A stretch of 8,593 bases of DNA from a virus (IMGVR_UViG_2713896777_000020), one strand, 5' to 3'; positions 2,649-7,746 are shown, counted from the first letter of the stretch. Numbers and translations: made by a program. Notes: generated by a model not told the origin, from the letters alone.

Positions 2649-3407
2649 TCAAGTGCCTTTCCTGGTCCAGCCATATTTTTTGAATGCAGGCGCCGCTTCA
2701 TCGGTTTGTAGCCATTCTGCAAATCGACGGGTTTCATCATTTGCATCCTGACGTACTGTAATGTTCATATCACGCCATATCACGTAGTCTGGCGCTATTT
2801 CCACGACATCACCAATTTCTGGATTACTGGCTGCCCAGTCAGCCCAGGTTATCCAGACATCTGCTCCAGGCTGATTCTCAAGAGCCTTACGTGCAGTTCC
2901 GCTATTGGGCGCATATAAAATAATATTTTTTCGGATTGCGGCGACAGTTTCTATATTCCCTTTACGTCCGGCAATATCTTCCCAGACGCCAGTGCCTGAT
3001 GTATTACTGGTACCACCACCATCATTAACAATTACGCCAATCCCAGGTCTGGTCAGGTCGTCAATACTCCGGATATTTTTAGGATTACCTTTCTTTACCA
3101 GTAAAATACTTTTTCGCAGATAAAGAGGCTGAATATCTTTTTCACTGAAGCTGTCTTTATGGTCCCGAATGATAGCCAGAGCAGATTGTTCTGATGCGCC
3201 AAACAAGATATCTGCATTTTTTTTGGCATCTTCATTCCATTTGTTCTGTGGGCCGTAATGAACGTTCACTATAATACCTGTTTTTTCGGCATAAAGTTTG
3301 GCTGCATCAAGCAAGGCTGTATGCGGGCCACCAGGACCATACAGATTGATATCAGCATAAGCAGCAGAAGACAGGAATATTAAAAAACCTGCCATTATGT
3401 TCCTCAT
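2649..3407 (-). CDS. secreted ModA-like (molybdate/tungstate-type) periplasmic binding protein; orphan moron
   Basis: Track ORF, 252 aa. ATG at 3407 with AAGGAG about 7 nt upstream. N-terminus MRNIMAGFLIFLSSAAYA looks like a Sec signal peptide (AYA then D). ADILFGASEQ resembles ModA ADLFISADQ and the C-terminal FKKYGWT resembles ModA FKRYGFT. Region is AT-rich relative to the flanking phage genes. Confidence 0.8.
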   Translation of the reverse strand: MRNIMAGFLIFLSSAAYADINLYGPGGPHTALLDAAKLYAEKTGIIVNVHYGPQNKWNEDAKKNADILFGASEQSALAIIRDHKDSFSEKDIQPLYLRKSILLVKKGNPKNIRSIDDLTRPGIGVIVNDGGGTSNTSGTGVWEDIAGRKGNIETVAAIRKNIILYAPNSGTARKALENQPGADVWITWADWAASNPEIGDVVEIAPDYVIWRDMNITVRQDANDETRRFAEWLQTDEAAPAFKKYGWTRKGT

Positions 3408-3662: not shown

Positions 3663-4137
3663 GTCCATCTTCCACTGAGAATTAGAGGCGGCATGCTTTT
3701 TCCGGCTCTTGCCGGATATCCGTAATTGTCCATAATCTGCAGATTTATACCTTCTGCATGACCTGTCAGCGAAAATTTGTCCGGTGTTTCTACGGGAATG
3801 ACATCAAAAGTTACACGCACTCGCGTTACCGTGTAGACCTACTTTCCTGCACTTGCAAGATCACAGTGGTGTAACCGTAACAGGAATTTATTCTCTGGAC
3901 CGGCAGTAAATCCCTGAGTGGCGTGGTTCCCATATCAATTTCCCGCCAGGCAGCCTCCATTGCCAGCGTACAGGCTGGAGCCATGACCTGCCCTTTAAAT
4001 CTGGCCCGACCATCCCACCGGACGTGTTCTTCTCCCCTGAACTTAGGTACAGTCATCTCCAGTGGCACAAAAGTGTCAGCGCCATAATTTTTGACCATTA
4101 TCGCGCTACGGATATTTTGTTGACTGGTGAAAATCAC
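3663..4137 (-). pseudogene. possible degraded fimbrial-subunit-like remnant (two frames)
   Basis: Track ORF 3826..4137 contains RFKGQVMAPACTLAMEAAWREIDMG, with the same Cys-to-Gly spacing as FimA [24 protein letters not shown]. The next frame (3838-3663) reads ...TGHAEGINLQIMDNYG, compare FimA NVGVQILDRTG. No start or RBS; frames broken. Weak, motif-level only. Confidence 0.2.
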
Positions 4138-4412: not shown

Positions 4413-5000
4413 TCAAATCATCTTCTCGCGTTGCAGTAAACGATGGCAGCGACTGCACAATGTCCGCCACAGTTTCTGTTTTAATATCTTCCTGTGTTGC
4501 ATCTTTCTGTACCGGTAACGAACACCGGCTGGCTGAGGAAAGGCTTTACCATCGGTTTCCGCTACCGATTCAACTTTCGGCTCTGCTGGTAAATTATCAC
4601 CTGGTATGCAGTAACGAATTTTACCGTTCTGGTTTACGCGAATCAGACGACCTTTGCTGATTGCCATTGCCAGCGTTGAAGCAACTTTGCGGGATGTTGT
4701 ACCGAACAGCGTAGCCAGTTCATCCGCCGTTTGTGGTCCGCGTTGTTCAATCGTCGCGGTTAAATCGCACTCTGAGATTTTCGCTTCTGTTGCCGTGGTG
4801 GTTTCTTCTGGCGCTGGCTGTTCCTGCTGAACGTTGTTATCAGCCACACGCCAGGTGTATACGCTTTTATCAACGAAGCCAGCCTTTTTCAGTTCCCACA
4901 GCTCGTTCAGTACTTCTTCACGACTGATATCAAGTCGCGCAGCCAGCTCTACCGACGTGGCTTTTCCCATCGCTTTCAGTGCGTCAAAAACAGTCTCCAT
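4413..5000 (-). CDS. phage protein with two winged-helix-like segments, in the ren position after P
   Basis: Track ORF; ATG at 5000 with GGAGG 7-8 nt upstream, 33 nt after the P-like stop. N-terminal [30 protein letters not shown] resembles a wHTH. The last 50 or so residues look low-quality, so the 3' end may be wrong. Confidence 0.55.
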
Positions 5001-5033: not shown

Positions 5034-5699
5034 TCAAACAAAACCAGCCGCTTTCCGGCGTTCATATTCCTGTTTCAGCAACTCAATTGGCGTTGGCCCC
5101 GACGGGCGTTTGGGGGCCGCCAGTTGTCGCCGGACTGGCGGAACGCTCAGGCCGTTACTAACATGCTTTGCCCATTTCGTCAGTTGCCGTTCTGCAAGCC
5201 GTTTTAATTCCCCTTCGGTCATCTGGCGCTCAATCCCCTTTGAACGCATCTCGAGGCAAATGTGATACAGCACAGGCTGAGACCACGGGTACTTATCACT
5301 TCCGTCGTATCGCCAGGACTCATTGCGCCAGCGGCGGTACTCCTCCATCACAGCATCCACCGTCAGACCGAATGGATTGGCTCCGCTTTTCGAAATCAGT
5401 GCCACAAACTCAGCCAGGTCCGGAGGCCATGTTTCACCCGCCCGGCAGCGGTCCATGCACTGGCGGCAGACCTGCCGGATTTGCTGCTCAGTCATCGCGC
5501 CAATCTGTGCAATCCAGAGCTTCGAAGGTGCGGCCCCGTTCTTCTGGATCCAGCGGTTCGAATAAACCACCCCCATGAGTTCCCACAGCTTCCAGGCCGT
5601 TTCCGTCGCTGATAAATCCGTTTTCACGTTCCCACTGCTCACGTGCTGCCCGAATTTCCTGAACTGCCCGTGATGCGGTGCCACCTGGTGCTGCTGCAT
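5034..5699 (-). CDS. lambda P-like replication protein (helicase loader)
   Basis: Track ORF, 221 aa. Blocks align with remembered lambda P: MTEQQ (P: TTMEQ), PDLAEFVAL (P: PGQFVAW), YPWSQPVLYHICLEMR (P: YPWKSNAHYWLVTNLY), TEGELKRLAERQL (P: TDAELRRKAADEL). Start uncertain because of overlap with the upstream ORF. Confidence 0.8.
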   Translation of the reverse strand: MQQHQVAPHHGQFRKFGQHVSSGNVKTDLSATETAWKLWELMGVVYSNRWIQKNGAAPSKLWIAQIGAMTEQQIRQVCRQCMDRCRAGETWPPDLAEFVALISKSGANPFGLTVDAVMEEYRRWRNESWRYDGSDKYPWSQPVLYHICLEMRSKGIERQMTEGELKRLAERQLTKWAKHVSNGLSVPPVRRQLAAPKRPSGPTPIELLKQEYERRKAAGFV

Positions 5700-6528
5700 G
5701 GTTTACCCCTTTGCTGACTGGTTTAACCTGCGCCCTGACGTGATTTACGTGACGGGCGAATTTCTGCTCCCACTGAATCTGCGTAAACACTTTCCCCTCC
5801 GCTGCCCAGTAGTCCCGGAAGGCGGCAAGTTCAGCAGGTGTAAATTCTGTCTCCGGCAAAGCCATCCCCCACAACGCAGCCCGTCGTCGAAAATCCCGTG
5901 ACGGATACCAGCTATCGCTCATCGGGAATTTTCCGATGGGTTCGCTCAGGCCATACAGGAATACAGGGGGGGCTGCCTGTAACGACAAAACTTCCTGCTC
6001 ACTGGTCGGAGCACTCTCGCGTGCGTTATGTGTGGGGTTTAGATCTTTGGGTTCCTTTGGGTTCCGTGATCCGTTTTTGGGTGTCTTTGATGGAAAATTT
6101 GGGTGTCTTTGGTTATTTTCCATGCAGCTAAGAGTTCTGTTTTTGGGTCTGTTTTGTGCTGAAACATAACCATTTTCGGTACTGTTTTTATTAACAGCAC
6201 CAATTTTACCCACCTTTAAAGACTCCCGTTTTTGGGTGTATTCAGGCTCGGCAACACTTTCTTCTACACCGATAAGTCGGTACACCACAATTTGCTTTGT
6301 TCTGCCTTTTCTCTCACCGGTATCAACAATTAACCCAATCTCCATCAGGTGTCGTAAGCTGTCCTGCACAGTCTTTTTGTTCAGTTCCGTTACTTCTGCC
6401 AGTGCAGATACAGACGGGTATGCACACAAATCGGCACCGCACATATCAGCAAGCCAGGTCAATACTGACTTACTGGATGAACTGCCGGTTTTCACCTTTT
6501 TAGCCCATCGTAGTGCATCGATACTCAT
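5488..6528 (-). CDS. lambda O-like replication initiator (N-terminal wHTH domain, Pro/Lys-rich linker, C-terminal domain)
   Basis: Track ORF 5488..6603; start more likely the internal ATG at 6528 (MSIDALRWAKK...) with AGGGG about 6 nt upstream. Position immediately upstream of the P-like gene; linker is encoded by the iteron repeats. Confidence 0.7.
   Translation of the reverse strand: MSIDALRWAKKVKTGSSSSKSVLTWLADMCGADLCAYPSVSALAEVTELNKKTVQDSLRHLMEIGLIVDTGERKGRTKQIVVYRLIGVEESVAEPEYTQKRESLKVGKIGAVNKNSTENGYVSAQNRPKNRTLSCMENNQRHPNFPSKTPKNGSRNPKEPKDLNPTHNARESAPTSEQEVLSLQAAPPVFLYGLSEPIGKFPMSDSWYPSRDFRRRAALWGMALPETEFTPAELAAFRDYWAAEGKVFTQIQWEQKFARHVNHVRAQVKPVSKGVNHAAAPGGTASRAVQEIRAAREQWERENGFISDGNGLEAVGTHGGGLFEPLDPEERGRTFEALDCTDWRDD
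6042..6240. repeat. iteron-like direct repeats plus AT-rich stretch: candidate phage replication origin inside the O-like gene
   Basis: Six copies of core TTTGGGT at 6046, 6056, 6076, 6098, 6142 and 6231 (the extended form GTTTTTGGGTGTCTTTG is seen at 6071-6089); AT-rich stretch about 6155-6225. Confidence 0.6.
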
Positions 6529-7051
6529 ACGAACCCCTGGCAGACATTTGTTTATCTGCAAAGTAATATTGGTATTGCTGACGATACGCGTGCTTGAAAG
6601 CAATAGCTTTTTCTATAAGCTCGTCAGTCTCACGTTCCACAACAACTGGATCCGCAAAAAGCAGCCCGGACTCCACCACATCGCCATATTCTTTGTTTAA
6701 CCCGGCGATCATGTACGTAATGCTTTTTCCGTCAGTAATTTCACAATACAATCTGAAATCGCTGATCCGGATAGCCTCCATAATTGCCGGAATCAGCGCC
6801 GTGAATTTGTCACGCTTATCTCTGGTGTCGATAGCTTTCCAGCGTTCGAATATCTTCACCCGGTTAACGCCCAGCGCCCGTTGATCAACCTCGCCATCAT
6901 TAAACGTGACGCGTTGAACATCGATGTTCGGGCGTTCTTTCAGAGCCCAGAATGCTTCCGTGATTAATATCGTCGCCTGCTCCTGTGTCATTCCTGGTCG
7001 GCATACACAGGTATCCAGAGCCTCACAAACCTGTTCAGTGGTGATTTTCAT
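6500..7051 (-). CDS. hypothetical early protein (183 aa), in the cII position after the cro-like gene
   Basis: Track ORF; ATG at 7051 overlaps the dicC stop by 17 nt. No family recognised. Confidence 0.6.
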   Translation of the reverse strand: MKITTEQVCEALDTCVCRPGMTQEQATILITEAFWALKERPNIDVQRVTFNDGEVDQRALGVNRVKIFERWKAIDTRDKRDKFTALIPAIMEAIRISDFRLYCEITDGKSITYMIAGLNKEYGDVVESGLLFADPVVVERETDELIEKAIAFKHAYRQQYQYYFADKQMSARGSYEYRCTTMG

Positions 7052-7262
7052 TGTTCAACCGCCCCGCCCGCTTTGCCTTACGATATTCGTCATAAACTTT
7101 GGGGTCGTACTGAAGTTCCCCGCCGGATGCCTCTTGCAGGCGCATCGCGCGACCTTCAGGAACCAGTTCCCCCCATGCAGCAACGCTTGCCAGCCTAACT
7201 CCTGCGACATTGGCAAGCTTTGTTTTGCTGCCAAAAAACGCTATAGCATCAATTTTCAACAT
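7035..7262 (-). CDS. dicC: DicC-like Cro-type regulator
   Basis: Track ORF, 75 aa. MLKIDAIAFFGSKTKLA...PEGRAMRLQEASGGELQYDPKVYDEYRK matches remembered DicC. Divergent from dicA. AAGGGG before the ATG. Confidence 0.85.
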   Translation of the reverse strand: MLKIDAIAFFGSKTKLANVAGVRLASVAAWGELVPEGRAMRLQEASGGELQYDPKVYDEYRKAKRAGRLNNENHH

Positions 7263-7338: not shown

Positions 7339-7746
7339 ATGAAAAACGAAACCTTCGGTGCTCGCCTCTTATACAGGCGAAAAAAATTAAAACTGTCTCA
7401 GGCCGCATTAGGTAAGCTGGTCAAAGTGGCTCACGTAACAATTTCTCAATGGGAAAGAGATGAAACACAGCCAGCGGGGAAGAGATTATTCGCACTGAGC
7501 CAGGCGCTTCAGTGCTCGCCGACTTGGCTTCTTTTTGGAGATGAAGATAAGCAACCAGGCGAACCGATCCCAGATAATCAGCCAGTCAATCTGACAGAAG
7601 ATCAAAAAGAGTTGCTTCAACTGTTCGACGCACTGCCTGAGTCAGAGCAAAAGGCTCTGTTGTCAGAGATGCGTGCTCGAGTTGAGAATTTCAACAAACT
7701 TTTTGAAGAACTACTCAAAGCTCGCAAAAGAAGCGCAAATAAATAA
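7339..7746 (+). CDS. dicA: DicA-like HTH (XRE-family) repressor, the cI analogue
   Basis: Track ORF, 135 aa. HVTISQWER, LFALSQALQCSPTWLLFGDEDKQP and NFNKLFEELLKARKR match remembered E. coli DicA. Confidence 0.9.
   Translation: MKNETFGARLLYRRKKLKLSQAALGKLVKVAHVTISQWERDETQPAGKRLFALSQALQCSPTWLLFGDEDKQPGEPIPDNQPVNLTEDQKELLQLFDALPESEQKALLSEMRARVENFNKLFEELLKARKRSANK

Follow-up and report, generated by a model that had tools for sequence, protein, structure and literature searches.

A Qin-type YdaT-family gene in the cII position after dicC, encoding a probable transcription factor in place of lambda CII

The gene that follows dicC in the 8,593-nucleotide stretch of viral DNA analysed here (IMGVR_UViG_2713896777_000020; hereafter the window) encodes, by profile matches and predicted fold, a 183-aa member of the YdaT family, from a divergent Qin-type branch that is longer than the characterised members. 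The protein is probably (at about 0.72) a transcription factor that replaces lambda CII in phages of the Rac, Qin and CP-933P type and activates a leftward, PRE-like promoter directed towards dicA. As a kind, the gene is ordinary: the family is known, annotated and already catalogued. The gene and its immediate neighbours lie as follows.

6500..7051, minus strand: ydaT-family gene, presumed functional analogue of cII; ATG start, 183 aa, TAA stop at 6500-6502
7035..7262, minus strand: dicC (cro-like), first gene of the rightward operon; 75 aa (NCBIfam NF007282, 5e-50; Pfam P22_Cro, 3e-13)
7339..7746, plus strand: dicA (cI-like repressor), presumed target of the PRE-like transcript (NCBIfam NF007257, 1.6e-72; Pfam HTH_3)
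5488..6528, minus strand: O-like replication initiator carrying a DnaT-like domain; follows the ydaT-like gene in the operon (Pfam DnaT, 1e-16; PHROG 1032; RefSeq start)

An earlier note, made from the DNA alone, had placed the gene correctly: our listing of open reading frames returns it next after dicC on the minus strand, the two genes share the 17 nt from 7035 to 7051, and the neighbour beyond it is an O-like/DnaT-like replication initiator by both Pfam and PHROG. Lambda CII has 97 residues, and the description of the protein as about twice that size also holds. With the RefSeq start of the O-like gene (window 6528), the ydaT-like gene and the O-like gene overlap by 29 nt, and a lambda-P-like loader gene (Pfam, PHROG) lies further downstream, also on the minus strand. 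The 183-codon frame is a genuine coding gene and not a chance one, because in comparisons with copies about 11-12% divergent at the nucleotide level dN/dS is low (0.11-0.13) and the differences are concentrated at third codon positions (38-42 of 55-58). Lack of a coding signal in relatives had been named as an observation that would count against the gene; purifying selection was found instead. Among 5426 complete E. coli genomes, megablast detects the gene in 2522, with 525 records at least 99% identical to the window copy.

Gene order is conserved well beyond the window. The arrangement here (a divergent dicA, then dicC, the ydaT-like gene and the O-like and P-like genes) is the one characteristic of the YdaT family, and a divergent HTH_3 repressor, a YdaS/Cro-like gene, a YdaT-like gene and replication genes follow one another in every related locus examined, in Salmonella, Serratia, Rahnella, Citrobacter, Enterobacter, Klebsiella and several phages. 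The comparison with Rac and other lambdoid prophages that had been proposed earlier thus gives a matching slot and order throughout the related loci examined.

Several features of the surrounding DNA were recorded along the way. The longest frame of the P-like loader (5034-5699, minus strand) has 221 aa against 153 aa in RefSeq, with a start well upstream, and this longer reading would overlap the end of the O-like gene. A DUF1627 gene (4413-5000, minus strand) is annotated as frameshifted in the closest genome. The adhesin Paa, of the AcfC family, is encoded as cargo at 2649-3407 (minus strand; Pfam SBP_bac_11, 5.5e-34), in the late-early region of the prophage; in the closest genome a degraded fimbrial gene lies beside it. 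Bases are masked or unknown (runs of N) at 984-1033 and 2188-2266; the second run breaks a Hok-like small frame that corresponds to hokD of the closest genome, and the first is bracketed by a 300-nt direct repeat (565-864 and 1034-1333, 87% identical, 469 nt apart) that apparently lies within the DUF968 gene region of that genome.

The protein had been called unrecognised, a description that does not survive database searches: Pfam, PHROGs, RefSeq and phage annotators all recognise the gene. The profile search that the earlier note had recommended gives a match to Pfam PF06254 (YdaT_toxin) at 24.8 bits, above the gathering score of 21 (E 2.9e-5), and, for residues 1-170, to PHROG 163 ('CII-like transcriptional activator'; 4.4e-37). 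One residue separates the protein from WP_000705622.1 of RefSeq ('toxin YdaT family protein'), which an ompW-adjacent prophage of E. coli E2865 encodes. A profile built from an alignment of 41 family sequences finds the CP-933P YdaT structure 8bt1 in the PDB at 3.3e-21 and 3c4r at 2.3e-20, and hhalign pairs the family with Rac YdaT at 99.3% probability (E 1.2e-20). Homology to a characterised phage protein, which had been named as a finding that would overturn the earlier claim, is therefore clear.

Identity to the characterised proteins (CP-933P and Rac YdaT) is only 21-26%, and single-sequence searches are correspondingly weak. A phmmer search of PDB sequences with the window protein gave nothing significant (8bt1 at E 0.48, AcrIIA4 at 0.36), and a phmmer search of 1.84 billion representatives returned only 58 proteins, mostly fragments of close relatives; intermediate sequences were therefore required to reach Rac and CP-933P YdaT. 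The match to AcrIIA4 disappeared once family profiles replaced the single sequence, and we rejected a relationship with that protein. No NCBIfam model matches the 183-aa protein, and the Pfam search gave no match to Phage_CII up to E 0.1. The K-12 remnant YdfX was already termed 'the Qin prophage YdaT homolog' in 2025 (PMC11879457).

The structure prediction that the earlier note had also called for leads to the same family. The AlphaFold2 model (monomer prediction) has a mean pLDDT of 85.4, and its four best Foldseek matches in the PDB are to the YdaT structures 8bt1 and 3c4r. The parts of the protein that we distinguish are listed with their coding positions.

6761..7051, minus strand: predicted POU-like helix-turn-helix DNA-binding domain, residues 1-97 (AlphaFold2 pLDDT 83-96; CP-933P YdaT structure; hhalign with Rac YdaT)
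6839..6883, minus strand: predicted recognition helix, residues 57-71, with Arg70-Trp71 invariant in 41 sequences
6566..6757, minus strand: predicted C-terminal helical region, residues 99-162, with helices 99-106, 111-130 and 135-about 162 (AlphaFold2)
6503..6565, minus strand: variant-specific, low-confidence C-terminal tail, residues 163-183, where pLDDT falls to 68, 51 and 46

[quoted passage not shown] Within the predicted domain the helices span residues 5-17, 23-35, 57-71 and 77-97, and the loop of 21 residues (36-56) sits inside the helix-turn-helix itself. A POU-like helix-turn-helix domain has been described for YdaT, with a loop of 9-23 residues across the family (PMC9986795), a range into which the loop of 21 falls. 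The statement that the protein has no obvious helix-turn-helix is thus wrong at the level of the fold, where the motif is predicted at residues 23-35 and 57-71; it is hard to see by eye because the loop splits its two helices. Arg70 and Trp71 align with Arg57 and Trp58 of Rac YdaT (hhalign), giving the Arg-then-Trp pair of the family (Arg60 in CP-933P, Arg57 in Rac), and a Rac YdaT H56A/R57A double mutant has lost DNA binding (PMC11879457). Helix 111-130 aligns with alpha6, the tetramerisation helix of YdaT; alpha6 and the disordered tail of CP-933P YdaT have been described (PMC9986795), and the conserved helix 135-about 162 has no ordered counterpart in 8bt1.

The DNA at the start of the gene carries a candidate binding site for the protein.

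7041..7058, no strand assigned: predicted binding site of the protein, a YdaT-box-like inverted repeat TTGAAC-AATGAA-AATCAC (minus-strand reading) that spans the start codon ATG

Rac YdaT footprints the box ATGATTCATGAAAATCAA, with the ydaT ATG within the spacer (PMC11879457), and CP-933P YdaT footprints TTGATT-N6-AATCAA at the ydaS/ydaT junction (PMC9986795). The window box is in the same register as the footprinted Rac box. Aligned on the start codon, all 17 family loci carry the pattern NTGAWY-N6-RWTCAN in the start-codon register, in one case with the register shifted by the loss of one codon. The 17 comprise 11 non-redundant loci from a first comparison and six fetched afterwards as a held-out test; a twelfth locus of the first comparison, phage PhiR42_1, was left out because it duplicates the window box and flank. 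Three phages with more distant CII-like proteins (mEp237, HK639 and a Stenotrophomonas phage) were also kept out of the set, and in these the box is absent at the start codon. The left half-site lies outside the ydaT coding sequence, and none of the 17 loci lacks its TGA core; the right one runs into conserved Met-x-Ile codons, and its conservation is partly confounded by coding constraint.

The window contains a single match to the family pattern, where by our own estimate chance alone would give about 0.13. As an inverted repeat at the cro/ydaT junction the box is nevertheless a poor palindrome, with 3 of 6 positions symmetric (the least among the 17 compared) and 3 mismatches to the canonical TTGATT-N6-AATCAA. 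A window-wide count of the canonical box at up to 3 mismatches gave 8 against 5.5 expected, which is non-significant, and the box at 7041-7058 was not among the repeats returned by a generic repeat search. We considered a second operator at 4120-4137 (TTGACTGGTGAAAATCAC, 2 mismatches) and rejected it: the site is without the TAnnnT geometry described below and fails the family pattern. This site has GAAAATCAC in common with the main box, and near it, on the minus strand, is a GATAAT hexamer that stands 3 nt nearer the box than in the family pattern.

Beyond the box, on the strand antisense to the ydaT-like gene, is a candidate promoter element.

7079..7084, plus strand: -10-like hexamer TACGAT of a predicted YdaT-dependent, PRE-like promoter

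On that strand, each of the 17 loci (Rac, a CP-933P-like phage and 15 others) has a TAnnnT hexamer 29-30 nt away from the box centre; in the flanks, which are otherwise unalignable, the frequency of TAnnnT is 1.2% per position. If the hexamer is a -10 element, the transcript would start at about 7091 and the box centre would lie near -41.5 (-41.5 or -42.5 across loci). Class II activators occupy this position. As a -35 region, CAACCG is poor, in keeping with a promoter that would depend on an activator. Scanning for generic sigma-70 promoters gave no leftward candidate near the gene, a result that is not decisive because an activator-dependent promoter is expected to escape such a scan.

Published accounts place the promoter elsewhere, and the box-adjacent geometry suggested here agrees with neither of them. 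In Rac, the effect was credited to a BProm-predicted promoter about 190 bp from the box (PMC11879457), and in CP-933P the putative PRE start was placed under the operator itself (PMC9986795); the reporter fragments of both studies would also include the box-adjacent hexamer. Our tentative proposal, to which we give slightly less than even odds, is that YdaT-type CII analogues, the Qin type included, are class II activators of a box-adjacent PRE whose start lies about 40 nt inside the 3' end of the cro-like gene. If so, the Qin-type subfamily would also differ in half-site preference (TGAAC vs TGATT) and in its extra C-terminal helix. This operator/-10 geometry is the only modestly new element of the analysis, and the comparison across the family points to an arrangement of the promoter that is simpler than the published Rac model.

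Taken together with work on the relatives, these features suggest the following circuit. Upon infection, or on derepression from DicA, the rightward early operon (dicC, the ydaT-like gene and the O-like and P-like genes) would be expressed, and the YdaT-like protein would, by homology, form a tetramer through its C-terminal helices. Its N-terminal POU-like domain would bind the inverted repeat at 7041-7058 over its own start codon and switch on the weak leftward promoter (TACGAT at 7079-7084, start about 7091). This leftward transcript would pass through dicC in antisense and continue into dicA, so that DicA would rise, DicC (Cro-like) would fall, and lysogeny or maintained repression would be favoured, following the logic of lambda CII and PRE. 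CP-933P YdaT is a tetramer (PMC9986795); it turned on an otherwise silent PRE-like reporter and had no effect on a PRM-like promoter (PMC8630535). Assembly through an antiparallel four-helix bundle and a need of oligomerisation for DNA binding are taken as typical of the family. Rac YdaT raised racR expression 29-fold in a box-dependent manner (PMC11879457). For the phage of the window we infer tetramerisation, box binding, promoter activation and the biological outcome by analogy with these relatives. The earlier guess from position, that genes in this slot often govern the lysis-lysogeny decision or act as toxins or host-takeover factors, stands in its first part, given the cII slot and characterised relatives that belong to the lysis-lysogeny circuit; a role as toxin or host-takeover factor finds no direct support here.

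The same box would also suit a protein that acts mainly as a repressor or roadblock, shutting off its own synthesis and blocking rightward transcription of the O and P genes, with no promoter activation. In every family locus the box overlaps the ATG and the ribosome-binding region, the structural study terms YdaT a repressor and puts the proposed PRE start under the main operator (PMC9986795), and Rac YdaT binds the PR-like promoter region too (PMC11879457). However, induction of Rac YdaT left a ydaT reporter unchanged while racR rose steeply and in dependence on the box (PMC11879457), the silent PRE reporter was activated by CP-933P YdaT (PMC8630535), and a pure roadblock would leave without a function the antisense TAnnnT that is strictly conserved at a constant 29-30 nt. 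We therefore regard roadblock action as the main function as unlikely; the two roles are not exclusive of one another.

A 99.5% identical protein is found in PPompW prophages of Shiga-toxin-producing strains, and the EDL933 gene is 99.5% identical at the nucleotide level. The viable phages mEp460, HannyBb and PhiR42_1 carry an 88-89% identical form of 173 aa, always between Cro/DicC and O, which is annotated as 'CII-like transcriptional activator' in HannyBb and as 'cII' in PhiR42_1. A mosaic junction with the DnaT-like replication module lies at about window 6569 (codon 161), inside the 3' end of the gene, and the mosaic segment continues to 6500. The 173-aa variants (PhiR42_1, E. ruysiae, E. 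albertii), which are linked to another O gene, diverge from residue 162 onward, and megablast matches to them end at query nt 70. Since the tail differs with the attached O gene, the C-terminal tail depends on the attached replication module.

The window copy differs from its nearest RefSeq copy, in E. coli E2865, by a single base (A here, C there, at window 7007), which changes Trp15 to Cys. Trp15 is conserved in at least 90% of the 41 family sequences; the change looks rare, with no 100% identity among the best E. coli matches listed, and it could weaken the DNA-binding domain. This raises the alternative that, within a cryptic prophage, the window copy is decaying and has lost its function while keeping a family-typical sequence. 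Besides the substitution, which is the sole difference from the nearest RefSeq copies, such decay would fit the frameshifted or interrupted DUF1627, fimbrial and TerB genes of the closest genome, the truncation already seen in the K-12 relative ydfX, and a box that is the least symmetric of 17. Against it, the open reading frame is intact, copies one base different occur in hundreds of genomes (the 525 records above), the lineage is under purifying selection, the dicA, dicC, O and P neighbours are intact, and the viable phage PhiR42_1 has an identical box sequence. The prophage in the window may be defective, yet we think decay of the gene itself quite improbable, somewhat more so than the roadblock.

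The reading least likely to hold, and one already largely refuted, sees in the protein the toxin partner of a toxin-antitoxin pair of the YdaS/YdaT type, in which cro-like DicC would be the antitoxin: the database names ('YdaT_toxin', 'toxin YdaT family protein'), two small, overlapping, co-transcribed genes and the killing or filamentation of cells on over-expression of Rac YdaT (PMC11879457) favour it, but the toxin-antitoxin prediction to which the family owes its name did not hold in experiments on CP-933P, where YdaT is non-toxic (PMC8630535) and both YdaS and YdaT regulate promoters (PMC8630535; PMC9986795), Rac toxicity acts through host promoters and comes with raised expression of host rcsA, as a transcription-factor effect would (PMC11879457), the predicted fold is a DNA-binding helix-turn-helix plus an oligomerisation helix, and the cII slot of viable phages is occupied by a YdaT-like gene. 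No PADLOC defence model matches the 183-aa protein, and there is no toxin fold among its structure matches. By analogy with Rac, over-expression of the window protein could possibly still be toxic as a side effect of a transcription factor.

The discovery value of assigning a transcription factor of the YdaT family to this position is small, since the family's structure, operator and CII-like role are published and standard annotation names the gene. For the full-length Qin-type gene the analysis does offer a concrete putative role, in place of 'toxin', a label that misleads, and of the 'unknown function' given to K-12 YdfX, and it gives exact coordinates for the predicted operator and promoter. 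The Qin-type gene is present in about half of complete E. coli genomes, including the ompW-adjacent prophages of Shiga-toxin-producing strains.

Among named systems, one characterised relative is CP-933P YdaT of E. coli O157:H7 (PDB 8bt1; close relative 3c4r), to which the window protein is about 23-26% identical. The window protein is longer (183 vs 141 aa), has a longer helix-turn-helix loop (21 vs 14 residues) and has an extra conserved helix after the tetramerisation helix as well as its variant-specific tail. The half-sites differ (TTGAAC/GTGATT in the window, TTGATT in CP-933P), as do the immunity partners (DicA/DicC vs PaaR2/YdaS).

Rac YdaT of E. coli K-12 (P76064) is alike at 99.3% hhalign probability. 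Its box lies over its own ATG in identical register, a TAnnnT stands at +29 past the box on the antisense strand, and the protein activates transcription of the repressor gene. Identity to the window protein is 21%, and Rac His56 is Glu69 in the window protein. For Rac YdaT, binding to the racR-ydaS intergenic region and to the promoter of host rcsA has been described as well, and so has toxicity on over-expression.

[quoted passage not shown] The equivalent K-12 gene (positions 1202-1480 of our K-12-type Qin locus, L032) retains the 17-nt overlap with dicC and is 88% identical at the nucleotide level over codons 1-93, which correspond to the DNA-binding domain and are all that remains of it. 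YdfX is thus a C-terminally truncated pseudogene without the oligomerisation helices, whereas the window gene is full-length. CP-933P YdaT cut to residues 1-96 loses DNA binding (PMC9986795).

Lambda CII shares with the window protein the slot between cro and O and, presumably, a role as activator of a leftward promoter that lies where cro and cII meet and transcribes the repressor gene. Like the YdaT relatives it is a tetramer, but one of different architecture, and it binds a direct repeat (TTGC-N6-TTGC), the target of YdaT being an inverted one. According to the literature, YdaT and lambda CII have no detectable similarity (PMC9986795). The window protein stands outside the CII family and is, we presume by analogy, a functional counterpart of lambda CII.
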